Part shown: piece after piece, positions 35,501-60,124 of the stretch
How positions within the stretch are numbered: the stretch's first letter is position 1
Layout of the letters: every line of letters begins with the position of its first letter
NCBI GenBank assembly: GCA_965207445.1
Contig: CBDBLX010000002.1
Span: 1,495,849-1,559,848 of the forward strand
Source of the DNA: Nitrosopumilus sp.
Lineage (GTDB): Archaea; Thermoproteota; Nitrososphaeria; Nitrososphaerales; Nitrosopumilaceae
Reading direction: 5' to 3'
DNA length: 64,000 bases
Notes under the pieces: generated by a model
Told to the model about the DNA's origin: nothing
Databases searched by the model: none
Seen by the model: only the letters and a program-made list of their open reading frames with translations
Program-made: the position numbers and the translations under genes

Positions 35501-38500
35501 AGCAAGATATTTGCATCACAATCACCTCATGATCCTGCAGTACTTGAACTACCTATACCATCACTTCAAATAGAGGTTAATCCTAGCGGTATTTACGGGC
35601 CGCTTGCACTTAACAAGGAAATTCAAATAGAGGCACAGCTTCCACCAGACAAGCCAACCAATCTAATAGCTAATCCATTAAACAAACAAGTTATTCTGAA
35701 TTGGTCTGCACCGACTTATGTTTCTCCTCCTGTCATAGATTATACTGTACAGTATCGTGTCAATGACGGCGTAACGCATGCATGGGAGACATTCCCAGAC
35801 ACGTTTTTGAACACAACTGGTATAGTCACAGGTTTAACCAACGGAGTGCAGTATCAATTCAGGGTAAATGCCACAAATGCGGTAGGGACAGGACCTGCTT
35901 CTGATGTCGTCCCTGCCACACCACGTACAGTTCCAGAGGCTCCGTCTAATCTGACTGCCGATCCGGGCAACGAGCAAGTGGATTTATCATGGACTGCGCC
36001 TCATGATGGCGGCTCTCCGATAACAGGTTATATCGTAGAGTACACATCAAACAACGGCGCTTCGTGGAGTGAGTTTGCAGACATCACTGACACATATGCC
36101 AACGTCACGGGCCTAACAAACGGACAACAGTATCATTTCAGAGTAAATGCCACAAATGCGGTAGGGACAGGACCTGCTTCTGACATCGTCCCCGCCACTC
36201 CCGTGACTCTCCCAGGGGCTCCAGAAAATCTGATAGCGACAGTAAACGGCACCACCATAGAACTCACATGGGATCCGCCTGCAAACGATGGAGGCGCTAC
36301 AATTACATCATATACTGTCCAACAAAGTACGGATGGTATAACGTGGGATACGGTACCTGATTTGAACAGTGCAGATACCAAAGCAACTACACCCAACGTG
36401 CTACTTAACACAAAATACAGTTTCCGCGTGAATGCCACAAATGCGGTAGGGACAGGGCCTGCTTCTGACATTGTTATGTCACTTATTGACACTAAACCCT
36501 CCGTCAGGCTTTCAACGAATATTACAGGTCCCACATCTTTGGACTCTATACCTTTTACGATCTCCGTTAATGAACGCGTAACTGGGCTCGAAGCATCTGA
36601 GATTTCTACATCTTCTGGCATCGTAAAGAATCTTGTTTTAGGAAACTATACATTTGGTGGCGCGGGCAACGGCACCAGTGAGTTTAGTAGTCCGCTTGGA
36701 ATTGCCACAAATGGTACAGGATATGTGTATGTTGCCGATACATTTAACCACCGTGTCCAGATATTTGATGCAGCAGGCGCGTATTTGGGTGAGTTTGGTA
36801 GACAGGGTAGTAGTGACGGAGAGTTTAGCATCCCGTTTGGAATTGCCATAAATGGTACAGGACACGTGTATGTTACTGATTCAGGTAACCGCCGTGTCCA
36901 GATATTTGATGCAGTGGGCACGTACTTGGGTGAGTTTGGTAGACAGGGTAGTGGTAACGGAGAGTTTGTCAGCCCGTATGGAATTGCCATAAATGGTACA
37001 GGACACGTGTATGTTACTGACAATTTTAACCACCGCGTCCAGATATTTGATGCAGTGGGCGCGTACTTGGGTGAGTTTGGTAGTGGGGGCAGCGGCAACA
37101 GTGAGTTTAGTAGACCGAATGGAATTGCCATAAATGGTACAGGATATGTGTATGTTACTGATTCAGGTAACCACCGTGTCCAGATATTTGATGCAGCAGG
37201 CGCGTATTTGGGCGAGTTTGGTAGACATGGCAGCGACAACAGTGAGTTTAGAAACCCGAATGGAATTGCCATAAATGATGCAGGGCATGTGTATGTTGCC
37301 GATACAGTTAACGACCGTGTCCAGATATTTGATACAGCAGGCATGTATCTTGACAAGATCGTCAGTTCAGATTTGACACTTGATCTTGACAATCCAATTG
37401 CTGTAGCGATTCGTGGCACGTCTTTGTATATCATAGACTCGGATACTAGTCACGTTCATGTATTGCGCAACTTTTACACCTTTGAAGTACACAATCCTTC
37501 CGTTGGAACTCTTCAGGTCCATATACCTGCAGATGTGGTACAGGATGATGCAGGCAACAATAATACCGCATCCAATATAATCCGAATTTCAATCGTTACG
37601 GTTCCAGGTGTTCCGCAGAATTTGGTAGCTACGCCAGGTGATGCTACAGTCACCCTCGCATGGGACCAGCCTAGAAATGACGGTGGTGCTGCTATAATAT
37701 CATATATTGTACAGCAGAGTATTGACGGTGTTATATGGACTCTGGTGCCTGATTCAGATAATAGTGATACGACTGCAACAGCTATCGAATTGACAAATGA
37801 CAGTCAGTATCAATTTCGTGTTAATGCCACAAACATTGCCGGAACAGGTCCTGCATCTATCATCTCTGCCACCCCTACGGACACCACTCTGCCATCTGTT
37901 ACCATCAACGACGTAACAATGGAAGCAACAGGTGTCACAACTAGTGTTGATATTGGCTATCCAGAGATAACTGATGCATCAGGTGGCCCATATACCGTAA
38001 CATATAACGCAACTGGAAATGTACAGACCACATCAGGTGCTAGTAATGTGACCGTATCACTTGGTGTAGGTATGATTATAGTGCAGTGGAACGTCACGGA
38101 TCCCTCAAATAACATAGGTACTGCGCTCCAAATGGTGGACGTCACAGACACCACCCCGCCTACTATCACCCTGATTGGCTCGGCTTCTGTCACCGTGACG
38201 TTGGGCGGCACATATGAGGAACAAGGAGCAGTCTGCTCTGATATTGTGGATGCTGACAAGTCAGCCACTGTAGGGGGCGACACAGTTAACACTGACTCGA
38301 CTGGTCAATACACTGTGCAGTATACCTGTACAGATACAGCAGGTAATGAGGCCACACCTGTAGATCGTACCGTGACTGTCCATGATCCAACAGCTCCTTC
38401 TATTTCCATCAACGACATAACAATGGAAGCAACAGGTGCCACAACTAGTGTTGATATTGGCTATCCAGAGATAACTGATGCATCAGGTGGTCCATATACC

Positions 38501-41500
38501 GTAACATATAACGCAACTGGAAGTGTACAGACCACATCAGGTACTAGTAATGTGACCGTATCACTTGGTGTTGGTAGGATTATAGTGCAGTGGAGCGTCA
38601 CGGATCCCTCAGATAACACAGGTACTACGCTCCAAATGGTGGACGTCACAGACACCACCCCGCCTACTATCACCCTGAGTGGCTCGGCTTCTGTCACCGT
38701 GACGCTGGGCGACACATATGAAGAAGATGGAGCAGTCTGCTCTGATATTGTGGATGCTGACAAGTCAGCCACTGTAGGGGGCGACACAGTTAACACTGAC
38801 TCGACTGGTCAATACACTGTGCAGTATACCTGTACAGATACAGCAGGTAATGAGGCCACACCTGTAGATCGTACCGTGACTGTCCATGATCCGACATCTC
38901 CGTCTATTTCCATCAACGACGTAACAATGGAAGCAACAGGTGTCACAACTAGTGTTGATATTGGCTATCCAGAGATAACTGATGCATCAGGTGGTCCATA
39001 TACCGTAACATATAACGCAACTGGAAGTGTACAGACCACATCAGGTACTAGTAATGTGACCGTATCACTTGGTGTTGGTAGGATTATAGTGCAGTGGAGC
39101 GTCACGGATCCCTCAAATAATATGGGCACTGCGCTCCAAATGGTGGACGTCACAGACACCACCCCGCCTACTATCACCCTGACTGGGTCGGCTTCTGTCA
39201 CCGTGACGTTGGGCGGCACATATGAAGAAGATGGAGCAGTCTGCTCTGATATTGTGGATGCGGACAAGTCAGCCACTGTAGGGGGCGACACAGTTAACAC
39301 TGACTCGACTGGTCAATACACTGTGCAGTATACCTGTACAGATACAGCAGGTAATGAGGCCACACCTGTAGATCGTACCGTGACTGTCCATGATCCAACA
39401 GTTCCGTCTGTTGTTATAGACGACGTAACAATGGAAGCAACAGGTGCCACAACTAGTGTTGATATTGGCTATCCAGAGATAACTGATGCATCAGGTGGTC
39501 CATATACCGTAACATATAACGCAACTGGAAATGTACAGACCACATCAGGTACTAGTAATGTGACCGTATCACTTGGTGTGGGTATGATTATAGTGCAGTG
39601 GAGCGTCACGGATCCCTCAAATAATATGGGCACTGCGCTCCAAATGGTGGACGTCACAGACACCACCCCGCCTACTATCACCCTGACTGGGTCGGCTTCT
39701 GTCACCGTGACGCTGGGCGACACATATGAAGAAGAGGGGGCAGTCTGCTCTGATATTGTGGATGCGGACAAGTCAGCCACTGTAGGGGGCGACACAGTTA
39801 ACACTGACTCGACTGGTCAATACACTGTGCAGTATACCTGTACAGATACAGCAGGTAATGAGGCCACACCTGTAGATCGTACCGTGACCGTCCATGATCC
39901 AACAGTTCCGTCTGTTGTTATAGACGACGTAACAATGGAAGCAACAGGTGCCACAACTAGTGTTGATATTGGCTATCCAGAGATAACTGATGCATCAGGT
40001 GGTCCATATACCGTAACATATAACGCAACTGGAAATGTACAGACCACATCAGGTACTAGTAATGTGACCGTATCACTTGGTGTTGGTAGGATTATAGTGC
40101 AGTGGAGCGTCACGGATCCCTCAAATAACATAGGTACTGCGCTCCAAATGGTGGACGTCACAGACACCACCCCGCCTACTATCACCCTGACTGGGTCGGC
40201 TTCTGTCACCGTGACGCTGGGCGGCACATATGAAGAAGATGGAGCAATCTGCTCTGATATTGTGGATGCGGACAAGTCAGCCACTGTAGGGGGCGACACA
40301 GTTAACACTGACTCGACTGGTCAATACACTGTGCAGTATACCTGTACAGATACAGCAGGTAATGAGGCCACACCTGTAGATCGTACCGTGATTGTCCATA
40401 TGGCGTCTGACACCACCTCACCGTCTATTTCCATCAACGACGTAACAATGGAAGCAACAGGTGCCACAACTAGTGTTGATATTGGCTATCCAGAGATAAC
40501 TGATGCATCAGGTGGTCCATATACCGTAACATATAACGCAACTGGAAATGTACAGACCACATCAGGTACTAGTAATGTGACCGTATCACTTGGTGTTGGT
40601 AGGATTATAGTGCAGTGGAACGTCACGGATCCCTCAAATAATATGGGCACTGCGCTCCAAATGGTGGACGTCACAGACACCACCCCGCCTACTATTACCC
40701 TGATTGGCTCGGCTTCTGTCACCGTGACGTTGGGCAGCACATATGAGGAACAGGGAGCCGTCTGTACAGACTTGGTGGACGGTAATATTGTTCCAGTTCA
40801 ACTAGGTACGGTAGACGCATTTACCCTAGGTCAGTACACCATACAGTACACCTGCACAGATACAGCAGGTAATGAGGCCACACCTGTAGATCGTACCGTG
40901 ATTGTCCATATGGCGTCTGACACCACCTCACCGTCTATTTCCATCGACGACGTAACAATGGAAGCAACAGGTGCCACAACTAGTGTTGATATTGGCTATC
41001 CAGAGATAACTGATGCATCAGGTGGTCCATATACCATAACATATAACGCAACTGGAAATGTACAGACCACATCAGGTACTAGTAATGTGACCGTATCACT
41101 TGGTGTCGGTAGGATTATAGTGCAGTGGAACGTCACGGATCCCTCAAATAATATGGGCACTGCGCTCCAAATGGTGGACGTCACAGACACCACCCCGCCT
41201 ACTATTACCCTGACTGGCTCTTCTTCTGTCACAATAACCATAGGAAACTCATATGTGGATGCAGGAGCCGTCTGTACAGACTTGGTGGACGGCAATATTG
41301 TTCCAGTTCAACTAGGTACGGTAGACGCATTTACCCTAGGTCAGTACACCATACAGTACACATGCACAGACGCAGCAGGTAATGAGGCCACACCTATAAG
41401 CCGCACCGTGACCGTCCATATGGCGTCTGACACCACCTCACCGTCTATTTCCATCAACGACGTAACAATGGAAGCAACAGGTGCCACAACTAGTGTTGAT

Positions 41501-44017
41501 ATTGGCTATCCAGAGATAACTGATGCATCAGGTGGTCCATATACCGTAACATATAACGCAACTGGAAATGTACAGACCACATCAGGTACTAGTAATGTGA
41601 CCGTATCACTTGGTGTTGGTAGGATTATAGTGCAGTGGAACGTCACGGATCCCTCAAATAATATGGGCACTGCGCTCCAAATGGTGGACGTCACAGACAC
41701 CACCCCGCCTACTATTACCCTGACTGGCTCTTCTTCTGTCACAATAACCATAGGAAACTCATATGTGGATGCAGGAGCCGTCTGTACAGACTTGGTGGAC
41801 GGTAATATTGTTCCAGTTCAACTAGGTACGGTAGACGCATTTACCCTAGGTCAGTACACCATACAGTACACCTGCACAGATACAGCAGGTAACGAGGCCA
41901 CACCTATAAGCCGCACCGTGACCGTCCATATGGCGTCTGACACCACCTCACCGTCTATTTCCATCAACGACGTAACAATGGAAGCAACAGGTGCCACAAC
42001 TAGTGTTGATATTGGCTATCCAGAGATAACTGATGCATCAGGTGGTCCATATACCGTAACATATAACGCAACTGGAAATGTACAGACCACATCAGGTACT
42101 AGTAATGTGACCGTATCACTTGGTGTTGGTAGGATTATAGTGCAGTGGAACGTCACGGATCCCTCAAATAATATGGGCACTGCGCTCCAAATGGTGGACG
42201 TCACAGACACCACCCCGCCTACTATTACCCTGATTGGCTCGGCTTCTGTCACCGTGACGTTGGGCAGCACATATGAGGAACAGGGAGCCGTCTGTACAGA
42301 CTTGGTGGACGGTAATATTGTTCCAGTTCAACTAGGTACGGTAGACGCATTTACCCTAGGCCAGTACACCATACAGTACACATGCACAGACGCAGCAGGT
42401 AATGAGGCCACACCTGTAGATCGTACCGTGATTGTCCATATGGCGTCTGACACCACCTCACCGTCTATTTCCATCAACGACGTAACAATGGAAGCAACAG
42501 GTGCCACAACTAGTGTTGATATTGGCTATCCAGAGATAACTGATGCATCAGGTGGTCCATATACCGTAACATATAACGCAACTGGAAATGTACAGACCAC
42601 ATCAGGTACTAGTAATGTGACCGTATCACTTGGTGTTGGTAGGATTATAGTGCAGTGGAACGTCACGGATCCCTCAAATAACATAGGTACTGCGCTCCAA
42701 ATGGTGGACGTCACAGACACCACCCCGCCTACTATCACCCTGATTGGTTCGGCTTCTGTCACCGTGACGTTGGGCAGCACATATGAGGAACAGGGAGCCG
42801 TCTGTACAGACTTGGTGGACGGTAATATTGTTCCAGTTCAACTAGGTACGGTAGACGCATTTACCCTAGGTCAGTACACCATACAGTACACATGCACAGA
42901 CGCAGCAGGTAATGAGGCCACACCTGTAGATCGTACCGTGATTGTCCATATGGCGTCCGACACCACCTCACCGTCTATTTCCATCGACGACGTAACAATG
43001 GAAGCAACAGGTGCCACAACTAGTGTTGATATTGGCTATCCAGAGATAACTGATGCATCAGGTGGTCCATATACCGTAACATATAACGCAACTGGAAATG
43101 TACAGACCACATCAGGTACTAGTAATGTGACCGTATCACTTGGTGTTGGTAGGATTATAGTGCAGTGGAACGTCACGGATCCCTCAAATAACATAGGTAC
43201 TGCGCTCCAAATGGTGGACGTCACAGACACCACCCCGCCTACTATCACCCTGATTGGTTCGGCTTCTGTCACCGTGACGTTGGGCAGCACATATGAGGAA
43301 CAGGGAGCCGTCTGTACAGACTTGGTGGACGGTAATATTGTTCCAGTTCAACTAGGTACGGTAGACGCATTTACCCTAGGCCAGTACACCATACAGTACA
43401 CATGCACAGACGCAGCAGGTAATGAGGCCACACCTGTAGATCGTACCGTGATTGTCCATATGGCGTCTGACACCACCTCACCGTCTATTTCCATCGACGA
43501 CGTAACAATGGAAGCAACAGGTGCCACAACTAGTGTTGATATTGGCTATCCAGAGATAACTGATGCATCAGGTGGTCCATATACCGTAACATATAACGCA
43601 ACTGGAAATGTACAGACCACATCAGGTACTAGTAATGTGACCGTATCACTTGGTGTTGGTAGGATTATAGTGCAGTGGAACGTCACGGATCCCTCAAATA
43701 ACATAGGTACTGCGCTCCAAATGGTGGACGTCACAGACACCACCCCGCCTACTATCACCCTGATTGGTTCGGCTTCTGTCACCGTGACGTTGGGCAGCAC
43801 ATATGAGGAACAGGGAGCCGTCTGTACAGACTTGGTGGACGGTAATATTGTTCCAGTTCAACTAGGTACGGTAGACGCATTTACCCTAGGTCAGTACACC
43901 ATACAGTACACATGCACAGACGCAGCAGGTAATGAGGCCACACCTATAAGCCGCACCGTGACTGTCCATATGGCGTCCGACACCACCTCACTGTCTAATT
44001 ATTCACAATGCAGATAG
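32540..44017 (+). CDS. 3825-aa secreted adhesin-like protein: signal/TM, FG-GAP repeats, Ig-like, 3x FN3, Ig with inserted NHL repeats, FN3, 12x (HYR-like + DUF5011-like)
   Basis: Hydrophobic N-terminus; FGxSVxxxGDxxGDGxPDIAVGA repeats (about 32840-35230); FN3 W..P...Y...YxFRVNA.N..G.G; NHL P.GIA.NG.G.VYV.D..N.RVQIFD (about 36640-37470); 504/513/510-bp repeats (about 37880-43990). Confidence 0.9.
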   Translation: MVRINACVWRKITPNYNKPHHYIALLFIIVLCSSLYFTSTCFAPSDECKIMHVMDKFVWMDSVLKSTIHDIPYAYGQTPDFSDKTGFVYVTDTIEINHLNVSGGLSDSDAFGRSVTSAGDLDGDGVPDIIVGANQPNVNRNEASGDVYVVFMNSDGTVRNARIMEQLSTNTHTVNAIHRGTSVASLGDLNGDDIPDIAIGASGDINTTDDHGAIYILLMNRDGTTDRIIPITHNTPNGPTLDTGDFFGNSIALVDDLDGNNVPDIAVGAIGDDAGGDSRGAIHILLMNSDHTIRNTIEINSTTPRGPILNDKGFFGQSVASTDLNNDGTPDIIAGTYLDSNNGYSRGAVHIMFMNSDGTIQNTVRIDESTTNGPRLSNEAHFGVSVASAGDLDNDGVDDVLVGSYENRSNTGSVYIMLMNPDGSIKSTSKINSSTSGGPVLSAGDRLGVSVTPIGDLNGDGMPDIVAGAYWDDAGGTNRGAVHLMLLDPIRPVPNYKVHDTAKITTQAVQGSGYSNQFHFGTVSSIGDIDSDGTPDIAVGARGDVEGGANRGAVYILLMNNDGTVKSATAINDATPRGPTLANHDLFGTSVTSIGDIDEDGTPDIAVGADGDDSVGVDRGAVYILLMNNDGTVKNTVKINDATPRGPTLSNGDGFGTSVTSIGDIDEDGTPDIAVGADDDNGSGGSLRGAVHILFMSNDGTVKRTVEINSATPRGPTLSNSDTFGASIASIGDINGDGTPDIAVGADGDNSNRGAVHILFMNNDGTVKSTVEINSTTPRGPTLSLGDRFGASIASIGDINGDGTPDIAVGARDDSKIKAQQGAFYILLLNDDGAVKRSVKIDSNTTNIPDMSIGDRFGSSIASVGDINGDGTPDIAVGADQDDSGGSNRGAVYIIFLDKTVVIQGVTSSADDGRHTQGPIDIDVLFSEPVGVVGSPYLTLETGRIDRNAVYVSGNNTTVLTFRYTIQKQDTTLDLNYLSKSSLSLNNSKIFASQSPHDPAVLELPIPSLQIEVNPSGIYGPLALNKEIQIEAQLPPDKPTNLIANPLNKQVILNWSAPTYVSPPVIDYTVQYRVNDGVTHAWETFPDTFLNTTGIVTGLTNGVQYQFRVNATNAVGTGPASDVVPATPRTVPEAPSNLTADPGNEQVDLSWTAPHDGGSPITGYIVEYTSNNGASWSEFADITDTYANVTGLTNGQQYHFRVNATNAVGTGPASDIVPATPVTLPGAPENLIATVNGTTIELTWDPPANDGGATITSYTVQQSTDGITWDTVPDLNSADTKATTPNVLLNTKYSFRVNATNAVGTGPASDIVMSLIDTKPSVRLSTNITGPTSLDSIPFTISVNERVTGLEASEISTSSGIVKNLVLGNYTFGGAGNGTSEFSSPLGIATNGTGYVYVADTFNHRVQIFDAAGAYLGEFGRQGSSDGEFSIPFGIAINGTGHVYVTDSGNRRVQIFDAVGTYLGEFGRQGSGNGEFVSPYGIAINGTGHVYVTDNFNHRVQIFDAVGAYLGEFGSGGSGNSEFSRPNGIAINGTGYVYVTDSGNHRVQIFDAAGAYLGEFGRHGSDNSEFRNPNGIAINDAGHVYVADTVNDRVQIFDTAGMYLDKIVSSDLTLDLDNPIAVAIRGTSLYIIDSDTSHVHVLRNFYTFEVHNPSVGTLQVHIPADVVQDDAGNNNTASNIIRISIVTVPGVPQNLVATPGDATVTLAWDQPRNDGGAAIISYIVQQSIDGVIWTLVPDSDNSDTTATAIELTNDSQYQFRVNATNIAGTGPASIISATPTDTTLPSVTINDVTMEATGVTTSVDIGYPEITDASGGPYTVTYNATGNVQTTSGASNVTVSLGVGMIIVQWNVTDPSNNIGTALQMVDVTDTTPPTITLIGSASVTVTLGGTYEEQGAVCSDIVDADKSATVGGDTVNTDSTGQYTVQYTCTDTAGNEATPVDRTVTVHDPTAPSISINDITMEATGATTSVDIGYPEITDASGGPYTVTYNATGSVQTTSGTSNVTVSLGVGRIIVQWSVTDPSDNTGTTLQMVDVTDTTPPTITLSGSASVTVTLGDTYEEDGAVCSDIVDADKSATVGGDTVNTDSTGQYTVQYTCTDTAGNEATPVDRTVTVHDPTSPSISINDVTMEATGVTTSVDIGYPEITDASGGPYTVTYNATGSVQTTSGTSNVTVSLGVGRIIVQWSVTDPSNNMGTALQMVDVTDTTPPTITLTGSASVTVTLGGTYEEDGAVCSDIVDADKSATVGGDTVNTDSTGQYTVQYTCTDTAGNEATPVDRTVTVHDPTVPSVVIDDVTMEATGATTSVDIGYPEITDASGGPYTVTYNATGNVQTTSGTSNVTVSLGVGMIIVQWSVTDPSNNMGTALQMVDVTDTTPPTITLTGSASVTVTLGDTYEEEGAVCSDIVDADKSATVGGDTVNTDSTGQYTVQYTCTDTAGNEATPVDRTVTVHDPTVPSVVIDDVTMEATGATTSVDIGYPEITDASGGPYTVTYNATGNVQTTSGTSNVTVSLGVGRIIVQWSVTDPSNNIGTALQMVDVTDTTPPTITLTGSASVTVTLGGTYEEDGAICSDIVDADKSATVGGDTVNTDSTGQYTVQYTCTDTAGNEATPVDRTVIVHMASDTTSPSISINDVTMEATGATTSVDIGYPEITDASGGPYTVTYNATGNVQTTSGTSNVTVSLGVGRIIVQWNVTDPSNNMGTALQMVDVTDTTPPTITLIGSASVTVTLGSTYEEQGAVCTDLVDGNIVPVQLGTVDAFTLGQYTIQYTCTDTAGNEATPVDRTVIVHMASDTTSPSISIDDVTMEATGATTSVDIGYPEITDASGGPYTITYNATGNVQTTSGTSNVTVSLGVGRIIVQWNVTDPSNNMGTALQMVDVTDTTPPTITLTGSSSVTITIGNSYVDAGAVCTDLVDGNIVPVQLGTVDAFTLGQYTIQYTCTDAAGNEATPISRTVTVHMASDTTSPSISINDVTMEATGATTSVDIGYPEITDASGGPYTVTYNATGNVQTTSGTSNVTVSLGVGRIIVQWNVTDPSNNMGTALQMVDVTDTTPPTITLTGSSSVTITIGNSYVDAGAVCTDLVDGNIVPVQLGTVDAFTLGQYTIQYTCTDTAGNEATPISRTVTVHMASDTTSPSISINDVTMEATGATTSVDIGYPEITDASGGPYTVTYNATGNVQTTSGTSNVTVSLGVGRIIVQWNVTDPSNNMGTALQMVDVTDTTPPTITLIGSASVTVTLGSTYEEQGAVCTDLVDGNIVPVQLGTVDAFTLGQYTIQYTCTDAAGNEATPVDRTVIVHMASDTTSPSISINDVTMEATGATTSVDIGYPEITDASGGPYTVTYNATGNVQTTSGTSNVTVSLGVGRIIVQWNVTDPSNNIGTALQMVDVTDTTPPTITLIGSASVTVTLGSTYEEQGAVCTDLVDGNIVPVQLGTVDAFTLGQYTIQYTCTDAAGNEATPVDRTVIVHMASDTTSPSISIDDVTMEATGATTSVDIGYPEITDASGGPYTVTYNATGNVQTTSGTSNVTVSLGVGRIIVQWNVTDPSNNIGTALQMVDVTDTTPPTITLIGSASVTVTLGSTYEEQGAVCTDLVDGNIVPVQLGTVDAFTLGQYTIQYTCTDAAGNEATPVDRTVIVHMASDTTSPSISIDDVTMEATGATTSVDIGYPEITDASGGPYTVTYNATGNVQTTSGTSNVTVSLGVGRIIVQWNVTDPSNNIGTALQMVDVTDTTPPTITLIGSASVTVTLGSTYEEQGAVCTDLVDGNIVPVQLGTVDAFTLGQYTIQYTCTDAAGNEATPISRTVTVHMASDTTSLSNYSQCR

Positions 44018-51142: not shown

Positions 51143-51178
51143 ATTTGTAAAAACAGATAGTAGCTTTTGTATGTTTTG

Positions 51179-51284
51179 CATAATAGTTTCATTAAAGATC
51201 CGATAGTTTTCTAATATTTTGTATTCATAATATGTACTCAACTTCGAGATGAATATCAATCAAAATATCGGATCTTTAATCATA
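51179..51284. mobile_element. About 90-100-bp MITE-like repeat upstream of pyrG
   Basis: attaaagatccgata...tatcggatctttaat; second copy at 30301-30404. Confidence 0.75.
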
Positions 51285-51315
51285 TCAGTATGCATCAAGG
51301 CATGCTAAAGTTGTC

Positions 51316-51396
51316 GTAACCGTTCAACTCATTCTCAAGTTTAGACACAGATTCATCGACTAACTTTTAGTGCAGGCACGGGGGTTGAACGGTTAC
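51316..51396. mobile_element. About 80-bp GTAAC-ended MITE (reverse orientation); an extra solo TIR lies at 51496-51511
   Basis: gtaaccgttcaac...gttgaacggttac. Confidence 0.8.
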
Positions 51397-51879
51397 GACC
51401 TTGCGATCTGATCTAGAGTACCAGTACACGTAATGTGTGGGCAGATAATCAAGTCAAAGCCGCATCTGTGCTACTCTGGGCAAGGGGGGTGTTGGGGGGT
51501 TGAACGGTTACCGCTAAACTGGGAATTATATACTTGATTCACAAATATATGCCTAGTTAAATGCCTGCCTAGGCCGCATGCAGCCATACACAGCCATACA
51601 CAGCCATGCAGCACGCCAGATCCTTAAACCAAGAATGTGTGGATGGCAATACCAATAACAATGCCCGCGATTCAGACATTTTTGATGGATGAAGGCGGGG
51701 GTGAGCGCCAAGTGGATGTGTGTTGTAGCATATGTGAATGTAATATTATACACTTGTAACTTATCATGGATAGCAATCATATCATGTTCCGGGTAGTCCC
51801 CATCCAGCACCCAATCCGTAGCCTATGGCGCCTGATATGAGACTGCAAAAGGCTGCAAAGCTAAGGCTTACTGATATTC

Positions 51880-54800
51880 TCATTTCTTGGTTTGCTCCGT
51901 GGAAAACTTCTCAAGTCCCGTCTTTGCAGGTTTCCAATTTTTGGGCTCAAACTCCTTTGGTAGGTTGGCTATGAGGCGGTCTGACTCCACTCCAACATAC
52001 ACCAACCGCTCTATGAGGGCAATGATATCGATGTCTTTACCGTCAAGTGTTTTTGTAGCGTCGTTTATGATGTCACTGTCCTTGTCAGTGCGAACCTTAT
52101 ATCGGTCGACTGCCCATGCAAGAGGAGTTCGTCCATTTACCTTGTAGTCGATTTTAGGTATGTTGTCAAAGACCACAATGCCGTTTATTTTCAATGTGAT
52201 GAAACCATCTGTTTGCTTTTTGCCCTTAACATCACTTGCTTTTTTCGTGTCAAACGCCATCTTTTCATATTTACCAAATGGAGCCTTTGGCTTGCCCAGT
52301 TTGTATCGTTTGCAGGTTTCCCAAAATAGATGAAGGTCGGCAAGCTGTTTGCCTGTTTTTGAGAATGCCCAAAAGTCGGGCGCCATGGGAATGTGGGGTA
52401 ATTCACGTGAAAGATTGTTTGCATATTTTTTTCGATAGTCAGGGTGATGCAACAAACCATAGACATAGTAGAATATATCTTCCTTGGATATCGTCTTGTC
52501 GCCGTAGTGTTCACAATATTCTTCTTGTGTATAATCTGTGATATTATCTTGTCTACTGTTATTGTAATACGTGTATAATGGAAAACATTGTGTTGGTGAT
52601 GGACTCATTATATTTAGATCTGGAACACTATCCACAATATACGTGCCAAATATTTTCATGTCTGGGCGAAATCCACAAACAATCAATGAATTTTTAGAGT
52701 CGTTTTTTGGAAAGAAATTTAAAATTAATGCCTGCATCGCATTAAATACATTATCAAAATACATATTTTGTTTAAAAAATGGTCTATATAATGAAATTCT
52801 GATCTTATTTTTTGAAAATTTCTGCATGCCTAATCGTTTTAAACGAATTAAGGACTCACGATCCCATTTAGCTTTTTTAGGATTTGTTATTGGGTTATCT
52901 AAATTTTGAGAGTTACAATAACTAATATGACGTTCCATATTTTTAACCAACTCGTCTTTAGATGAATTATAGATCCACGCATCACGACCTGTTGTCACAC
53001 CTCCAGAATACATTTTAAATACTGCATTCCCCTTACCTTTCTTTGCATCCTTACTTCCGATCGGTAGATATTCAGAAAATTTACTACTTCTTTGCCCCAG
53101 CCAGTCGTGATGTTTGTCAGGCTTTATGATCTTCCAATCCAGTGATTTAATTGAACCTATCGTCTTGATGGTATTTAATTTGGTCTCGCGGTCGTGATAA
53201 TCGCCAATGTCGCGATAATATATGGTGCCGGGTGTCGTTTTTTTGGGATTTTTTACAAGAATGATAATGGCAACGGGTGCCCTGGAACCTGATCCAAATA
53301 TTTTCCCACCTTCCTTTCTGGATATTTCATCCCGTGTTCTTTGATTTCCCCTTAGGTCGAATATCCATACGTCTGTAAACTCTTGCTGTAGACAGGCGCG
53401 TATACCTGCCGCTACATCAGTTCTGATAAAACTAGCGTTTGTTACGAATCCAATAATACCTGATTTTCCTATGCGGTCCGAAGCCCAACGGATGGAACGA
53501 ATGTAAGAATCGTATAAAAGACCAACATGAGTTGCATTGGTATTGATAATTTTCGTCTTTTTTAAATAGGTGTCTTTGATTCTTTTGTCCATATCGTCAT
53601 ATTGGATATTCTGATTTTGGTCGTTGTAGTTGGACTGTCCTGCCGAGTACGGTGGATTTCCCACTATGACGGTGATGTTTGTCTGGCGTTGCCGTCTGAT
53701 GCGCCTTTTTACATTTGCCATGATGTCTCCAGTATGTTCATCTAATTTACCGGGGCTGAACGTGTCAGTCAGTGAGATGCCTTCAAACTGTTCAAACTTT
53801 CCTGCGCGTTGCGCGTACACAGACTCACAGTTTACGAGTGCTATGTAATAAGCCAGTAGGACAATCTCATTTGCAAATAATTCGTTATGATACTTGTACA
53901 CCAGGTCCTCTTTCCTGATCATACCAAGGTCTTCGGACATCAGTCTTGTAAGAAACGTGCCAGCCCCTGTAAACGGATCTATAATGTTGACATTCTTGTC
54001 AGTCACGCCGCGCCCAAAGTTCTCGCGTGATACGTGGTCGACGGACCTGAGGATAAAGTCGACTACCTCCTGTGGTGTGTAGACGATACCCAGACGTTCG
54101 GACATCTTCGGGAACGCCTGTTTGAAGAATGTCCCATACAGTTCACTTATGACGGGCTGCCTCGCGTCGTGCGTGTCAAGCTTTGAGACGCGATTCTCAA
54201 TACTCTTGTAAAAACTCTCTAATTTATCCATCTCCACATCAAGTCCATGCAGGAATAGTTCGTCGATTATGGCGTCCAGTGTGACGGAGACCGGATTCTT
54301 TTTTGCAAATTCATCAGTGTCAAATATTGCGTTGAATATCCTCCGCGTCACCATGTGTTGAGCCAACATGTCTATGCCGTCCTGTTCTGTCACCGAGTCA
54401 CTCATTATCTCGCGTAATCCGGACATGTAAGAGTCGAACATCTTTCTGGCGCCACTGCCGCCGCTGCTGGACTTCTTTCCATCTCCTATCACAGTCAGAA
54501 TGCGCTCCTGCAATCTTGCAACCACATCTGCAACATCCTTGGACCAATACTCAAAGTAACGGCGGTCTCCAACCTCATCCACTATTTTTGAATAGATCAG
54601 ATTAGATGGGACGTCAAGTTCACCAATAGGTATCGTATCGCCGCTAGGGTCGTGTTGCCGTATTCTGCCATCGCGGTCAACACCGAATATACTTACACGC
54701 TTTGGCAGTTCTTTTCTGAGATCTGCCGTATTACATTCGATACTCATTCGTTCATCATGTGAGCGCAGCGCCTGCAGTATCTTCCAGACTGTTTCAAACA

Positions 54801-56646
54801 CTTTGTTATTGTCCAATATCTGGTTTGCGTCTTGGTTGGGCGGTACTCCTATGGGTAGTATCACATACCCAGTTGATTTTTTCTCCGATTTTCGCATTAC
54901 GCGCCCTACTGCTTGCACAATTTCCACCATTGATTCCTTTGGATTCATAAATGCAATTGAGTCAAGTGCAGGTACATCAACCCCTTCTGAGAGACATCTG
55001 GCATTTGAGAGTATGCGGCATTCATCGGGGGCAACAGAGGAGCTTTCCCGTAACCATTGTATTGCATCGGCCCTTTCTGTAGCATTTTGTGTTCCATCCA
55101 CATGACGTGAGTCACAACTAAATCGTTTTCCATCAGTTTCACGTGTGAGTTTATCAAACGTCCGTGCAAATGTCTTTGAGTCCACCACTCTGTTAGTATA
55201 CACAATACACGTCTGCATGGCCCGCATGTCTTCATTATCACTGTCTGGATTCTGAAGCGCTTTGTACAATCCCAGCATTCTTGCTGCATCAGTCAGCTTC
55301 AAATCACCGGCTTCTGTAGTTACATCTACCAAATTTTGCAGGTATTTTGCCCCGTATCTTTCATCAATAGCCAATACAGCTACCTTGTAATCGGAAAGTT
55401 GTTTGGCATCAATTGCATCTGAAAAACTCAATTCATGCAACGTTTTTCCATATACGGCCGTATCATCCATTGAATACAATGGAATGCCAAGGTTGGATGT
55501 CTTTGTCTTTATTTTGGCTTGGAATATTTTTGGAGTCGCCGTCATGTATATTCTCTTGTTAGCATCAATTGACGTGTGTACAAGTTGTGCGCCCCATTCA
55601 TTTCCCTTGTCAGCTCCAGTAGTACGATGCGCCTCGTCACATAATACAAGATCAAACGGCCTGCCTACCTCTTTCTGTGCGTCCACTACGGCTTTCATAC
55701 TCTGATATGTCGAAAACACAACAGTCATCTTTTTTTTGTCTGTTTTTTTTAATGCAGATGCTATCCGTTTTGGGTTTGTAGTCACACGAATCTCCATCTC
55801 AATTATTGGTATGTCAGCAGCCTCATCACCATGACTTACTTTGGGATCTGAACATACACCCACATACCCATGTGGGATTGTCTTTTGTTCGGACCAATAT
55901 CTAATGGATTGATGCATCAGTGAGATTGAAGGTACTGCATATAGTACCAGTCCGCCAACACCAACCATCGATTCTGCAATCCTGAGAGATACTAGTGTCT
56001 TACCTGTCCCACATGCCATTATCAGTTTACCGCGGTCTGTTTCTGCAAGACCACTGGATACATCCACAAGTGCCTTTTTCTGATAATCGCGCAATTTGTA
56101 TGGATCGCGCCGTGTTATTTTAGTAAGTCCGGCAGCCAAGTCGGGCCAATTAACATTGCTCGTTGACAATGATTTGAAATTCAGTGCTGTGCAACCATGT
56201 CCTTTGAGTGCATCTTCTACATTCTTTCCATAACTACTACCCGTGTATACTAACATCATATGTGAGAATGTACTACGTGAACCTGCTTCTAGAAAGCTAT
56301 CTATGTGCTTTTTTTGAATAGTGGTTTTATCGTAAAATTTACACTGGATGGCACACAATGAACCATCACTTTTTTCCTTTGCTACAAGATCCGCACCAAT
56401 ATCGTGACTCTTGTTACGTTCTGGATATTCATCCCAGAGCCAAACTGATTCAAAACGATCTTTGTATATTGGATCCACACTTAGAAATGACTTGACAACT
56501 TTTTCAAACAATTTGCCTTTTGTGTGTCCATCACCATCTGCTCTCTGACGTAATTGTTCTAACATCTTGTTAAATCCAGTATTGTTTCCTGTAACAGTAG
56601 CGTGCGGTTTATTGCCACCGTTTGGTTTGCCGGCTGGAGGAGTCAT
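51880..56646 (-). CDS. Type ISP (LlaGI/LlaBIII-like) single-polypeptide restriction-modification enzyme
   Basis: Mrr-like nuclease (LFE...DIGADLV...AIQCKFY), SF2 helicase (MACGTGKT, DEAH, SEGVDVP, QAVGRVMR), MTase (DPFTGAGTF, GNPPY), C-terminal TRD. Start is ATG 56646 or 56661. Confidence 0.92.
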   Translation of the reverse strand: MTPPAGKPNGGNKPHATVTGNNTGFNKMLEQLRQRADGDGHTKGKLFEKVVKSFLSVDPIYKDRFESVWLWDEYPERNKSHDIGADLVAKEKSDGSLCAIQCKFYDKTTIQKKHIDSFLEAGSRSTFSHMMLVYTGSSYGKNVEDALKGHGCTALNFKSLSTSNVNWPDLAAGLTKITRRDPYKLRDYQKKALVDVSSGLAETDRGKLIMACGTGKTLVSLRIAESMVGVGGLVLYAVPSISLMHQSIRYWSEQKTIPHGYVGVCSDPKVSHGDEAADIPIIEMEIRVTTNPKRIASALKKTDKKKMTVVFSTYQSMKAVVDAQKEVGRPFDLVLCDEAHRTTGADKGNEWGAQLVHTSIDANKRIYMTATPKIFQAKIKTKTSNLGIPLYSMDDTAVYGKTLHELSFSDAIDAKQLSDYKVAVLAIDERYGAKYLQNLVDVTTEAGDLKLTDAARMLGLYKALQNPDSDNEDMRAMQTCIVYTNRVVDSKTFARTFDKLTRETDGKRFSCDSRHVDGTQNATERADAIQWLRESSSVAPDECRILSNARCLSEGVDVPALDSIAFMNPKESMVEIVQAVGRVMRKSEKKSTGYVILPIGVPPNQDANQILDNNKVFETVWKILQALRSHDERMSIECNTADLRKELPKRVSIFGVDRDGRIRQHDPSGDTIPIGELDVPSNLIYSKIVDEVGDRRYFEYWSKDVADVVARLQERILTVIGDGKKSSSGGSGARKMFDSYMSGLREIMSDSVTEQDGIDMLAQHMVTRRIFNAIFDTDEFAKKNPVSVTLDAIIDELFLHGLDVEMDKLESFYKSIENRVSKLDTHDARQPVISELYGTFFKQAFPKMSERLGIVYTPQEVVDFILRSVDHVSRENFGRGVTDKNVNIIDPFTGAGTFLTRLMSEDLGMIRKEDLVYKYHNELFANEIVLLAYYIALVNCESVYAQRAGKFEQFEGISLTDTFSPGKLDEHTGDIMANVKRRIRRQRQTNITVIVGNPPYSAGQSNYNDQNQNIQYDDMDKRIKDTYLKKTKIINTNATHVGLLYDSYIRSIRWASDRIGKSGIIGFVTNASFIRTDVAAGIRACLQQEFTDVWIFDLRGNQRTRDEISRKEGGKIFGSGSRAPVAIIILVKNPKKTTPGTIYYRDIGDYHDRETKLNTIKTIGSIKSLDWKIIKPDKHHDWLGQRSSKFSEYLPIGSKDAKKGKGNAVFKMYSGGVTTGRDAWIYNSSKDELVKNMERHISYCNSQNLDNPITNPKKAKWDRESLIRLKRLGMQKFSKNKIRISLYRPFFKQNMYFDNVFNAMQALILNFFPKNDSKNSLIVCGFRPDMKIFGTYIVDSVPDLNIMSPSPTQCFPLYTYYNNSRQDNITDYTQEEYCEHYGDKTISKEDIFYYVYGLLHHPDYRKKYANNLSRELPHIPMAPDFWAFSKTGKQLADLHLFWETCKRYKLGKPKAPFGKYEKMAFDTKKASDVKGKKQTDGFITLKINGIVVFDNIPKIDYKVNGRTPLAWAVDRYKVRTDKDSDIINDATKTLDGKDIDIIALIERLVYVGVESDRLIANLPKEFEPKNWKPAKTGLEKFSTEQTKK

Positions 56647-56774
56647 GGTGAAACACCCCATTTAAATAACTGACTACAAAAATTAAGATTACATATAAAA
56701 CACCATACCTCAAAAATAGAGTATGGTGATCGCGTCCCACATCTAATTAATCGCGGTGTGTCCCACACTGCACT

Positions 56775-56962
56775 GCACTGCACGGTGTGTGCACTGCACG
56801 GTGTGTGCACTGCACGGTGTGTGCACTGCACGGTGTGTGCACTGCACGGTGTGTGCACTGCACGGTGTGTGCACTGCACGGTGTGTGCACTGCACGGTGT
56901 GTGCACTGCACGGTGTGTGCACTGCACGGTGTGTGCACTGCACGGTGTGTGCACTGCACGGT
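56775..56962. repeat. Perfect 16-bp tandem array (11 full units plus 12 bp)
   Basis: gcactgcacggtgtgt repeated; GTGCAC palindrome at each junction. Confidence 0.97.
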
Positions 56963-57045
56963 ACCTATGGAATCATATGGGTGCATGTCCGTCATTTTTA
57001 TCTGCTCATATAGAGTCATTGCATCTTCCTCCACACCCTAAACTC

Positions 57046-57642
57046 TCAATCATACTTCACAGAACCACCTGTCATATCTACAATAGCGCCTTCATCTAAC
57101 CTTATAACCCTAGCCTTCTCACCCTTTGCTATCTGCCGCTCCCCTATATGCGCTCTTACAATCATGCCCACTATTTCTGCAAACTCTAGCGCATGATTCA
57201 CAAAGGCCACTGACACATCTGAATACACACCCAAGGGAGGCGCACCCACGACTGCATACCTCTTGTCATCCGTTGGAACCCACGTCAAAAACTCTTGCCT
57301 CTTTACACTAGGATGCTGCGGCAGTATGTCCATTGCCACGGTATCTACAGGCAAAACCTCTAGGAACGAGCCGCGCCCTGCAGACGGATCGACATACATG
57401 TATGCGTCTGGGCTCAAGCCAACATCGCGCATTGCATCTTGCATTACCTGCACACACTTTTCAGCGGCCTCTTTAGTTGTAGTATACAAGTCCATACTCT
57501 TTGTCAGATTGATGTCAACAGACTTCCAAGCCTTGTCACGGTACCGGGTAGCATCCATTATCTCTTTCACAGATGGCCCATTTGCCATCTCATGCACCAG
57601 TGACCTGGCGGCATGATGCATATGTCCTGTTATATTGGACAT
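57046..57642 (-). CDS. SAM-dependent DNA methyltransferase-like protein with a variant catalytic motif
   Basis: DLYTT, YVDPSAGRGSFL (motif I), VVGAPPLG in place of GNPP(F/Y)G. Start overlaps the transposase end. Confidence 0.7.
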   Translation of the reverse strand: MSNITGHMHHAARSLVHEMANGPSVKEIMDATRYRDKAWKSVDINLTKSMDLYTTTKEAAEKCVQVMQDAMRDVGLSPDAYMYVDPSAGRGSFLEVLPVDTVAMDILPQHPSVKRQEFLTWVPTDDKRYAVVGAPPLGVYSDVSVAFVNHALEFAEIVGMIVRAHIGERQIAKGEKARVIRLDEGAIVDMTGGSVKYD

Positions 57643-58628
57643 CTCATTAACTCCTTTAGGCGATTCTCATATGCGCCATCCTTTATCAGAATCTTGTACA
57701 TTAGGCGCTTGTCTGACATGCCTTCAGTTATCTCAGACATTATTTCATGAGTGTCTTGTGGCCTTATGTTATGTCTGCCTGCAAACTCATTTACACATCT
57801 GTGCAAGTACTCTTTTGAGATGTGATGGAACGTTCCATCGTACCCGCGGCGCATCATTGACCAGAATGACTCCATACCGTTTGTATGTGCCTTGCCCCTT
57901 ACGTACTCACCTACTGAATGATTTACAGATTCGTGGTTTTCGAGTCCACCATAGGAGGAATTTTCATCCGTGTATTTTTTGGCCTCTGATTTAACGTTGT
58001 TTTCAATAAAGTCCTCTAGTCTGGCTTTGGTAGTTTCAGGCACGGGTTTTGCCACAATCGTTTTCGTTAAGCGGTCCCTTACGCCCACCACAGCAGTCTT
58101 CTTTCCCTTGCCTTTTTTATCTAGGTGCTTGTTTGATTCAGAGCCACCCAAATACACTTCGTCTATCTCCACCGGCCCCGCCATCTTTTCATCACCTGCC
58201 AAATTAACCCAGGCCTCTCGTATGCGCTGCACCATAAACCATGCAGACTTTTGAGTTATGTGTAGTTCGCGGTGCATCTTCATGCTGCTTATACCTTTGA
58301 GACTTGTAGCGAACATGTAGACTGCAATGGCCCATTTCTGATAACCAATTTTAGAACGGTGCATTACAGTGCCTGTTTTGACTGAAAAGTGACTGTGACA
58401 GATATTGCACCTATAAGGGACGCTTGGTTTACTTCCTTCATTGCCAGTGTCAGGGCTGCCACAATAGGGACACGGCCTTCCATCCTTCCACAAGATGGAT
58501 TCGAACCATTTCTCTGCCGCTTTATTGTCAGGGAGCATTTCAAAGAGTTCGATGATTGAGATGCCTACGCGATTACTCCTGCATGGGGCTGATGCACTCG
58601 TTAATGCCTCTTCGAGTATGTCTTTCAT
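57630..58628 (-). CDS. IS1595-family transposase
   Basis: CPYC...CNIC zinc ribbon, FSVKTGTVM, KGISS, VEIDEVYLGG, YTDE, VNHSVGEYV...HTNGMESFWS. Confidence 0.95.
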   Translation of the reverse strand: MKDILEEALTSASAPCRSNRVGISIIELFEMLPDNKAAEKWFESILWKDGRPCPYCGSPDTGNEGSKPSVPYRCNICHSHFSVKTGTVMHRSKIGYQKWAIAVYMFATSLKGISSMKMHRELHITQKSAWFMVQRIREAWVNLAGDEKMAGPVEIDEVYLGGSESNKHLDKKGKGKKTAVVGVRDRLTKTIVAKPVPETTKARLEDFIENNVKSEAKKYTDENSSYGGLENHESVNHSVGEYVRGKAHTNGMESFWSMMRRGYDGTFHHISKEYLHRCVNEFAGRHNIRPQDTHEIMSEITEGMSDKRLMYKILIKDGAYENRLKELMRCPI

Positions 58629-58772
58629 ACAGGGGGTTGAAAAGAGGGTTTAGTGAAAGTTTGTGCTGTTGTATATAGATTATATGTGATTATTTAGTTG
58701 TGAATCAAGTATATAATCCCCGCTAAACTCTCCAGTTTTCTTATATACGAGATGCACTAGTATTCTTAGATA

Positions 58773-59417
58773 ATGAAGGGTAACAACTTGGATGATTCAA
58801 CGTCCGCGTTCACCTGTTGTGACAAGGCGTTTGATGCAGGTGGCAAAACCGTGTCCGTGCGCGACGCACTTGTACTTATCAATCAGACACTGGATGAAAT
58901 ACTAATAGAACAAGAGGGGAGTGAGTTTGATGCCGATACTAGGTGGGCCTTGGCATGGTTTGAACAGTACAAATTTGACAACGGTGACTTTGGAGTGGCC
59001 GAAACACTTTCCAAGACGAAGAATACCAGTGTACATGGTATGGTGGATGCAGGTATATTGAAATCCAGTAGAGGTAAGGTGCGACTGTTCTCACCAAACG
59101 AGCTTCCAAAAGACTGGAATCTAAAAAAAGACAAAGGATTTACCATATGGGAAGCTACACATCATATGGTACGTTTGCTTGATACAAGTGAATTAGATGC
59201 AGCAAAAATCATGTCAAAACTTGGCTCTGCGGCCGAGCCTGCAAGAAAATTGACTTGTCGGTTTTATCATATATGTGAGCAAAAAAAATATACCAAAAAA
59301 GCACAAGACTATAATGCGTTGGTACAAAGCTGGCCAGAAATTTCTCATCTTGCAAAAAATGTTTTGGCGCTACGTACGTCACCGTCTAAAGGAATGAATT
59401 CATATGATGACCGCTGA
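58773..59417 (+). pseudogene. C-terminal remnant resembling a DUF1156-type adenine methylase
   Basis: SVRDALVLINQTLDE.L.EQEG.EFDADTRWALAWFEQY...AETLSK.KNTSV...YNALVQSWPEI. The catalytic N-terminal part is absent. Confidence 0.65.
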
Positions 59418-59721
59418 CATGCTTGACACCATGGTAAACCGTATTGTGAAACAATTAGATCCTGACGGTATCTTACTGTTTGGCTCTAGGGCGCGAGGCG
59501 ATGCAAGAGAGTGGAGTGATGTGGATCTTATGATTATAATGAATACGGTGTTGGACAAACGCAAAACAGCAATTGATACCCAGATGCTGTTAAAAGACCT
59601 GTTTATCAGTAAGGACATAATAGTAGTCACCAAGGACGAGATTCATCGTAAGCGTAACATAGTGGGCACTTTAATTCATGCGGCGCTTCAAGACGGGAGG
59701 ATGTTATATGAGCGATCATGA
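59404..59721 (+). CDS. Minimal nucleotidyltransferase (MNT antitoxin)
   Basis: LFGSRARGDA...SDVDLMII. Confidence 0.9.
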   Translation: MMTADMLDTMVNRIVKQLDPDGILLFGSRARGDAREWSDVDLMIIMNTVLDKRKTAIDTQMLLKDLFISKDIIVVTKDEIHRKRNIVGTLIHAALQDGRMLYERS

Positions 59722-60124
59722 TGCAGAGATACAGTCAGAGGCATTACAGTAGTTGAGATTTGCCAAGGACGATCATAACACGGCTATACAATTGATGAAC
59801 ATTGAATGTTTTTCACCACGACAAGTTTGTTGGCTCAGTCAACAGACTGCCGAAAAAGCACTCAAGGCTGCACTATTGTTAGATGCGGTCAAGTTTCCAC
59901 ACGTACACGACTTGAATATTCTAAGAGAACTACTTCCCAAGGGTTGGAATGTGTTGGACACGCACAGAGAACTATTCAATCTTACGGAATGGGCAGTGGA
60001 AGCACGTTATCCAGGTGACTGGCCGGAGCCTACAAACACAGATGCGAAATATGTAGAATCTACGGCACGTTTGATCTATGATTCTGTAGCCGTCGAGTTT
60101 AGACGTCGCGGCATACTTATTTGA
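59708..60124 (+). pseudogene. HEPN-domain toxin with an in-frame TAG at codon 15
   Basis: MSDHDAEIQSEALQ*LRFAKDD...QQTAEKALKA...HDL..L...EARYPG; overlaps the MNT end. Confidence 0.8.

Follow-up and report, generated by a model that had tools for sequence, protein, structure and literature searches.

Slipped-strand ON/OFF switching by simple sequence repeats (SSR) is described for restriction-modification (RM) genes of Haemophilus, Neisseria and Helicobacter, including Type III mod genes and phasevarions (PMC13076061, PMC3711429). In Streptococcus gallolyticus, the pil1 and pil3 loci show non-triplet repeats in a leader open reading frame (ORF) which shift the leader stop; one phase in three is ON, and the genes under control remain unaltered (Danne et al., 2014, PMC3894217). 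Termination-reinitiation (TeRe) coupling, described in Haloferax volcanii and Escherichia coli, involves -4 overlaps or 0/+1 gaps between stop and start, a Shine-Dalgarno (SD) motif inside the upstream frame and a steep dependence on distance (PMC6728339, PMC10666635), and delivery of ribosomes by upstream ORFs has also been reported (PMC12548453). The stretch analysed here, referred to as the window, comprises 64,000 nucleotides of Nitrosopumilus sp. (contig CBDBLX010000002.1, positions 1,495,849 to 1,559,848) and contains an IS1595-family insertion sequence (IS) element carrying a Type ISP RM gene, preceded by a leader ORF with a 16-bp variable number tandem repeat (VNTR). This arrangement points, with a probability of about 0.7, to a slipped-strand phase switch which would act on translation by termination-reinitiation, the assembled allele being OFF.

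In the proposed mechanism, ribosomes would start at a disposable leader ORF (ATG 57019), which has its own SD motif, and translate through the 16-bp array. One of the three phases would bring the leader stop into an ATGA, where the terminating ribosome would reinitiate on the Type ISP gene; the other two would place the stop about 100 nt early, a distance too great for reinitiation. When units are gained or lost, the phase would flip and the enzyme would stay unchanged, and the population would mix restricting and methylating cells with non-restricting ones. A spacer promoter may add a leader-independent basal level at this locus. The scheme presupposes cotranscription of the leader with the RM gene, translation of the leader, access to the RM start mainly by reinitiation, and slippage of units within the population.

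The leader, the array and the start of the RM gene

The features of this region are the following.

51880..56646, minus strand: Type ISP RM enzyme, 1588 aa, uninterrupted (domain profiles and structure match)
56643..56646, minus strand: ATGA stop/start overlap (-4), which reads ATAA in a second allele
56643..56773, minus strand: coupled-phase frame, uninterrupted between the array and the TGA that overlaps the RM start (frame analysis)
56654..56659, minus strand: SD-like GGGGTG in the coupled frame, 7 nt before ATG 56646
56692..56699, minus strand: TATA-like box TTTATATG in the spacer, score 7.4-7.5, a possible leader-independent promoter
56747..57019, minus strand: leader ORF in its present uncoupled phase, 90 codons, with its stop about 100 nt before the RM start
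56750..56773, minus strand: degenerate tail of the array, missing from the second allele of the same sample
56774..56962, minus strand: VNTR of 11.8 perfect copies of ACCGTGCAGTGCACAC, period 16, 100% identity
57028..57032, minus strand: SD-like GGAGG, 8 nt before the leader ATG

A preliminary description had the leader start at ATG 57019, run through about 11.75 perfect 16-bp units and stop at 56747. Reading of the minus strand confirms it: the frame of ATG 57019 shows 90 codons through the array and ends at TAA 56749-56747. Another reading frame continues without a stop through the array as far as TGA 56645-56643, whose overlap with ATG 56646 forms ATGA, and the arithmetic by which one unit more or two fewer would couple the leader to the RM gene is correct. 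When unit changes were simulated, the leader entered the coupled frame at -8, -5, -2, +1 and +4 units, and all other changes placed its stop 97 or 101 nt short of the junction. The unit shows no stop codon in any frame, its length is 1 modulo 3, and it has no second site anywhere in the genome. In the +1/-2 phase, the ATGA and the internal GGGGTG give the layout of a TeRe pair, with stop and start within about -8 to +6 and an SD motif inside the upstream frame. Between the array and the start, the RM frame itself contains six stops (56745, 56712, 56691, 56685, 56676 and 56664), so no unit count can fuse the leader to the enzyme; a classic in-gene SSR switch was rejected for this locus, the repeat being outside the RM reading frame and followed by these six stops. 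An in-frame ATG at 56661 is an alternative RM start. The leader peptides of the window and of the orthologous element described below (L029) show no match to a Pfam family.

In Haloferax volcanii, reinitiation needs overlaps or very short gaps, being reduced by 40-60% at 13-14 nt and gone at 22-23 nt (PMC10666635), and premature upstream stops abolish downstream translation (PMC6728339). If the lineage of the window behaves alike, this distance dependence makes a stop 100 nt early OFF and the ATGA ON, and the assembled allele, which is in the uncoupled phase, would be OFF or low.

Recurrence at archaeal Type ISP loci

A collection from 151 genomes of the genus gave 28 Type ISP loci, to which 401 genomes of the order added 16; of these 44 loci, four were dropped for a missing N-terminus and 40 were scored. 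A VNTR was defined as a perfect repeat of at least three copies and at least 24 nt within 500 nt upstream, and was found at 15 of the 40 loci. At 13 of these 15, the first stop of one post-array frame falls at -4 to +1 of an ATG, GTG or TTG start, whereas 2.3 are expected when the spacer is shuffled by dinucleotides. This corresponds to a Poisson-binomial P of 2e-10, which becomes 2e-7 when each unit family is represented by a single locus (8/9) and 1e-4 under a stricter null in which the last in-frame stop is preserved; the loci are related, so that all these values overstate the significance, which tells against the switch to that extent. At the two misses, L104 and L197, an SD-like motif precedes a CTG or GTA codon, and the stop falls at +1 or -4 of this codon. 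With the prediction fixed beforehand, a held-out set of 20 loci (four bacterial, two duplicates and 14 distinct archaeal) contained five archaeal loci with a VNTR, and all five fit the junction (P=3e-5; 6e-4 without L217). In total, 20 of the 54 scored archaeal Type ISP loci contain a VNTR and 18 of these 20 fit strictly.

Other properties of the 20 loci are also shared. The unit length is never a multiple of three, the units are stop-free on the sense strand at 19 loci (the exception is L213), and an ATG is open into the array at all of them. The coupled phase is present in six of the 20 (including the two with non-canonical starts), which is what a freely flipping three-phase switch would give. 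Junctions are of varied type: ATGA, TTGA, TGA-ATG, TAG-ATG, TAA-TTG, TGA-GTG and TGA-N-GTG. A fusion by stop-codon readthrough was considered and rejected, since the junctions are spread over three frames. Similarity between leaders at the DNA level is confined to three small groups, none of which includes the leader of the window, and on a quick tree of the enzymes the VNTR loci are scattered, with 12 changes, at least eight of them forced by well-supported branches. Repeat counts differ between paralogous copies (10.4, 17.4 and 22.4 in G141; 8.1 and 11.0 in G161) and between G207 and G527 (17.9 versus 8.9). By eye, a G-rich motif is present in the SD zone before the start at all 17 loci inspected. 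At eight of the 17 loci the spacer is 17-33 nt long and contains no scorable TATA; being too short for a promoter, it places the array within the RM transcript at these loci.

Some loci without a VNTR (L190, L187, L111, L193 and others) show an ATG-led frame of 11-121 codons which ends at the start; these may be leaders fixed in the ON phase or may be due to chance. Apparent non-canonical starts which coincide exactly with the leader stop and follow an SD-like motif are CTG and GTA (L104, L197) and ATA in the second allele of the window.

The preliminary description also considered that the array, with its GTGCAC palindromes, is a binding, methylation or decoy site. Generalised, the array would act as a DNA or RNA structure (protein-binding site, methylation decoy, palindromes or hairpins), with the number of units setting dosage or spacing. 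The transcript of the window is indeed predicted to fold into repeated hairpins (z=-3.85), but unrelated and mostly non-palindromic units, among them TATCCAT, ACAG and TTCCAATTCCTTC, are present at other loci, and LlaGI recognises an asymmetric site (PMC2790903). A structural role predicts neither non-triplet units nor stop/start junctions, and it appears extremely unlikely.

The leader could also control transcription, the uncoupled phases exposing U-rich RNA to aCPSF1/FttA or to an intrinsic terminator, as in attenuation of the pil1 type or polarity. T5 runs at 56716 and 56682 are in the stretch that only the coupled phase covers, a hairpin is predicted in the spacer, S. gallolyticus offers a precedent (PMC3894217), and exclusion between ribosomes and aCPSF1 has been proposed as speculation (PMC8116511). 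Control of this kind needs only coverage, yet 18 of the 20 loci stop within 5 nt of the start. At L101, L103, L110, L102, L118 and L195 the present uncoupled frame extends across the entire spacer and ends 46-100 nt into the RM gene, leaving nothing uncovered, and a scan for terminators of bacterial type called no terminator-like site on the minus strand at 56650-56780. Transcriptional control in place of reinitiation is thus distinctly unlikely; aCPSF1 polarity may add to reinitiation control rather than replace it.

Repeats and junctions elsewhere in the genomes

A neutral VNTR of a repeat-rich genome, with the open frame and the ATGA arising by chance, was also considered. The genome of the window contains 64 intergenic perfect repeats, so a perfect VNTR alone is not above chance; an ATG followed by A always yields TGA, and for this locus alone the open frame ending on the start gives a modest p=0.034 by spacer shuffling. 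Against this, the junction recurs at 18 of 20 Type ISP loci versus about three expected, and it was found in only two of the 30 own-genome cases of a non-triplet repeat and strand with a gene within 600 nt, both before RM genes. Chance is very unlikely for the locus and is already strongly disfavoured at the level of the family.

The second own-genome case (L198, C2:2124689-2124741, minus strand) shows an 11-bp unit repeated 4.8 times with an ATG 13 nt upstream, and a TTGA overlap with the gene for an N6/N4 methyltransferase of 793 aa, behind which lies a long frame weakly similar to Res; the leader of this case is in the uncoupled phase. Among non-ISP methyltransferase loci of five related genomes, seven of the 60 had their 5' end outside the locus and the layout was present in one of the 53 scorable ones (L168, with mod before res). 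At bacterial Type ISP loci, 13 of 14 show no upstream VNTR; the other one, L239, contains a 25-nt repeat about 550 nt from the conserved N-terminus and was left unscored.

The recurrence at 18 of 20 loci with unrelated repeats and leaders, together with the two N6/N4 methyltransferase genes, strongly supports a mechanism in which unit number modulo 3 sets the leader stop on the RM start, and the family-wide device is very probably functional. The earlier proposal that repeat number modulo 3 tunes RM expression without altering the enzyme is supported in part; the effect on expression is a prediction.

Spacer promoter candidates and the second allele

The preliminary description proposed as an alternative that the RM gene has its own promoter, read as tttaaata near 56662. 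The site was misread: it is TTTAAATG, not TTTAAATA, and is only 20 nt before ATG 56646, too close to the start given that TATA boxes of this genome peak at -30 to -26 (SD motifs peak at -15 to -11). The TATA-like box TTTATATG at 56699 is a stronger candidate. With transcription starting near 56672 and GGGGTG as SD motif, the RM gene would be expressed at any unit count, and the leader geometry would be the decaying remnant of a switch that works elsewhere. The score of this box puts it in the top 9% of intergenic windows, which also means that 8.5% of such windows reach the same score. SD motifs are commoner at tightly packed genes of the genome (20/50) than at isolated ones (41/348), which agrees with the prediction for reinitiation; their enrichment before isolated genes too fits a promoter of its own, although none of the 22 isolated SD-bearing genes shows a TATA scoring at least 5 between -60 and -10. 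The sigma-70 promoter scan that was also run is unsuited to an archaeon.

A second allele is present in contigs of four runs of one sample. It spans window positions 54491-56926, corresponding to the 5' half of the ISP gene, and is about 94-100% identical; no such variant was found in the 3' half of the ISP gene and the transposase region. A single change turns ATG 56646 into ATA and the TGA into TAA. Six more substitutions are present, and the coupled frame stays open over 56615-56687 with its stop kept. The allele lacks the degenerate tail of the array, with a joint 56749/56926 in two of the four runs and a loose end in a third; its array end is different, in k-mer contigs which give no unit counts. 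The 176-nt skip was rejected as evidence for a coupled phase in this allele, since it leaves 37 nt of array, which is exactly the shortest path of a collapsed 31-mer loop. The depth of the loop contig fits about 11-15 units at the locus. The ATA allele is compatible with a start at 56661, which would give a 19-nt overlap, or with a non-canonical start that depends on coupling, as at L104 and L197.

For a promoter of the RM gene's own, it counts that the second allele has no listed change in the TATA-like box though ATG 56646 is lost, and that the MTase-like gene upstream has a premature stop. The array is, however, still perfect, and all seven substitutions of the second allele keep the frame open and the stop in place. 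As the sole route of expression, this promoter is unlikely. The copy in the window could be fully gated or leaking from the spacer promoter; either fits.

The IS1595 element and its genes

The element is complete, at 51521-58721 (7201 bp), with matching terminal inverted repeats (TIRs) and an 8-bp target-site duplication (TSD), and may belong to the ISNwi group. Its ends and remaining genes are the following.

51513..51520, minus strand: right 8-bp TSD AGTTTAGC (end comparison)
51521..51544, minus strand: right TIR (end comparison)
57046..57642, minus strand: methyltransferase (MTase)-like passenger, 198 aa, with no Pfam or NCBIfam match
57630..58628, minus strand: IS1595 transposase, 332 aa, uninterrupted (PF12762, E 3e-32; NF033547, 166 bits, cut-off 75)
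58698..58721, minus strand: left TIR, beginning with GGGGATTATATA, which pairs with the right end with one mismatch
58722..58729, minus strand: left 8-bp TSD AGTTTAGC (end comparison)

The transposase shows two CxxC motifs and the motifs of the DDE block; the DDE_Tnp_IS1595 domain with its zinc finger, the TIRs and the 8-bp TSD place the element in the IS1595 family. The closest transposases, 62-76% identical, are from thaumarchaeotal records, which suggests an ammonia-oxidising archaeon as host. The RM enzyme contains Mrr_cat_2, ResIII, Helicase_C, ISP_coupler, N6_Mtase and Type_ISP_C domains, that is, an Mrr nuclease, a superfamily 2 helicase, a coupler, an adenine MTase and a target recognition domain in one polypeptide, as in Type ISP enzymes. 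It matches LlaBIII (4XQK) with E 1.5e-278 over residues 25-1567, and the catalytic motifs DIGADLV (82), AIQCKFY (99), MACGTGKT (210), DEAH (337), DPFTGAGTF (890) and GNPPY (996) are present. A Type ISP paralog of the genome (L001, G000:C2:1754544-1754623) contains (GCCA)20 in the specificity region, which splits the gene into 1430 and 218 codons and would be a classic in-gene switch.

The MTase-like protein gives only a lead to PF26055, on 23% of one Atlas cluster. In the alignment it keeps a SAM-binding-like motif I (DPSAGRGSF), and GAPPLG replaces the motif IV GNPPFG of two homologs, for which reason it is probably not catalytic: an active methyltransferase shows motif I together with an NPPF/Y motif IV, and the C-terminus of the passenger looks cut. 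The orthologous protein runs on as EMEFRVW beyond the first TGA of the window, so TGA 57048 looks premature and the ancestral end of the gene is probably the second in-frame stop, TGA 57018-57016. ATG 57019 overlaps this second stop, as the preliminary description had it. The link between the MTase-like gene and the leader now being cut by 26 nt, the leader would today rely on its own GGAGG.

A DNA search with the whole element in 41 relatives gave only short pieces, in four of the 40 other genomes, and a search of the order (401 genomes) with the MTase-like protein gave a match only in the genome of the window (G000). An orthologous element, L029 (which is the same stretch as L119 and enters the counts once), contains a transposase and an MTase-like protein which are 76% and 56% identical, respectively. 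Its repeat is different, CATCCCGTAT repeated 5.5 times inside a 136-codon ORF, and it is in the coupled phase, the TGA of this ORF being one base before the GTG of the ISP-like gene. Among 56 loci with IS1595 relatives in genomes and metagenomes, most carry other cargo and only L029 shows the full layout, so the VNTR is not a general feature of IS1595 elements. Three more IS1595-RM elements are present in the genome of the window (C2:119514-125603, 1424224-1428366 and 1136057-1142360); all their transposases are broken and two keep 8-bp TSDs. Each shows a tandem repeat between the transposase and the RM gene: 11 bp x11.1, 11 bp x4 and 19 bp x2.1.

Two further records show repeats beside IS1595 cargo. 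L032 contains at 10575-10636 a 7-bp repeat beside an assembly gap; this repeat lies just ahead of a methyltransferase-like passenger gene carried by an IS1595 element with a TSD. L066 (8954-9058; also L023 and L024) contains 13 copies of an 8-bp unit in the 5' end of an N6/N4 methyltransferase-HNH gene, directly after an IS1595 transposase in a SAR202 record, with an upstream ATG out of frame; this repeat would be a classic in-gene switch. At the right end of the element, three families of dispersed short repeats (about 120, 82 and 115 bp) are present in window positions 51167-51590, each with tens to over a hundred genome copies. Left of the element, at 58773-60124 on the plus strand, the window contains a 214-aa ORF, an MntA-like nucleotidyltransferase gene and a HEPN gene, a stretch with a 71% identical copy at C2:1263372-1264731. 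A 3825-aa protein with many long internal repeats is encoded at 32540-44017 on the plus strand.

Observations that weigh against the switch

Several observations weigh against a reinitiation switch, in the family or in this copy. In the family, 34 of the 54 scored archaeal ISP loci have no VNTR, and neither have the eight other members of the enzyme clade of the window (quick tree). Non-triplet periods are already 44 of the 64 among own-genome intergenic repeats, and the unit of L213 contains a TAG. The asymmetry between sense and antisense stops seen in the first set (1/15 versus 10/15) failed in the held-out set, where 5/5 units are antisense stop-free. Proximal leader ATGs show no TATA at the leaderless position, and the experiments cited on reinitiation were done in Haloferax and E. 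coli, not in Nitrososphaerota. The strict junction test fails at two IS1595-RM loci of the own genome that contain an 11-bp VNTR; both show an ATG right after the stop of a broken transposase, one with a TAA inside the unit and a 13-nt overlap, and the other with an open frame whose TGA is directly before 976 open codons lacking a canonical start. In the window itself, the spacer TATA score (7.5 at -53) is the best of 17 loci, the same 11-mer TTTTATATGTA is found at a similar distance before another IS-borne RM gene of the genome (which also counts for a promoter of its own), the co-occurring allele has ATA for ATG 56646, and the present stop of the MTase-like gene is 26 nt upstream of the leader ATG, too far for reinitiation.

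Possible role

Cleavage by Type ISP enzymes requires the engagement of two unmethylated sites in head-to-head orientation (PMC2790903), and low expression on arrival would favour methylation over cutting. The preliminary description suggested that the switch could ease establishment in an unmethylated host, which finds no support: by tblastn and TIR checks of the flanks examined, neither an IS1595 transposase nor a matching TIR accompanies most switch loci, and resident copies are coupled in only six of 20, with no excess of the ON phase. A better fit than establishment alone is bet-hedging on defence, uptake of DNA and methylation. An enrichment of RM systems is described in sponge-associated Thaumarchaeota (PMC7848895).

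A wider proposal, to which we give an even chance, is that ammonia-oxidising archaea of this family have repeatedly built, from unrelated sequence, a VNTR-leader gate on reinitiation for RM genes (Type ISP, Type III-like mod and possibly IIG), several of them with weak starts (TTG, GTG, CTG, GTA, ATA) and thus wholly dependent on coupling; IS1595 would spread cassettes of switch plus enzyme between genomes, giving a mosaic of restriction barriers and methylomes. If true, this would be a mode of phase variation which leaves the regulated protein untouched and works through conditional ribosome reinitiation, and a case of repeat-driven switching of chromosomal genes in archaea. Unit count modulo 3 would then predict motif methylation molecule by molecule in long reads, and archaeal genetics would gain a compact, portable toggle. 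Surveys that seek repeats inside RM genes would overlook such switches. The locus also bears on how a one-chain restriction enzyme carried by a transposon is tolerated.

Comparison with known systems

In the open-access literature, no VNTR-gated reinitiation switch was found, although subscription papers and supplements could hold a precedent; for archaea, the same literature gave only a viral repeat expansion (PMC12199143, in the parts available), and a 2025 review of coupling contains no occurrence of 'phase variation', 'repeat' or 'restriction'. The ingredients are already known singly: SSR-switched RM genes, repeat-tuned leader peptides (pil1) and reinitiation. The element shares with the IS1595 family N-terminal CxxC pairs, GG-ended TIRs and an 8-bp TSD (PMC8101967), and differs in its cargo, which consists of the MTase-like passenger, the leader with its VNTR and an RM gene of 4.8 kb. 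The enzyme is like LlaBIII and LlaGI (PDB 4XQK, 5FFJ; PMC2790903) in its full domain order and in the catalytic motifs over residues 25-1567, and differs in being archaeal and IS-borne; the material on those enzymes in the source cited shows no leader switch.

With regard to the switching systems, the tract of SSR phase-variable RM genes is usually inside the coding sequence and frameshifts the enzyme (PMC13076061, PMC3711429), unlike the array of the window. TeRe coupling is described, in the parts of the sources cited here, for fixed gene pairs (PMC6728339, PMC10666635), whereas coupling here would be conditional on the VNTR. The pil1/pil3 leaders are the closest in form, since this locus also shows non-triplet repeats in a leader. 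Their output is anti-termination at a stem-loop terminator, and an ON leader need only reach the hairpin (PMC3894217); in the window, in contrast, the bacterial-type scan called no intrinsic terminator in the spacer, the ON stop falls on the start codon itself, and the target is an RM enzyme in an archaeal host.

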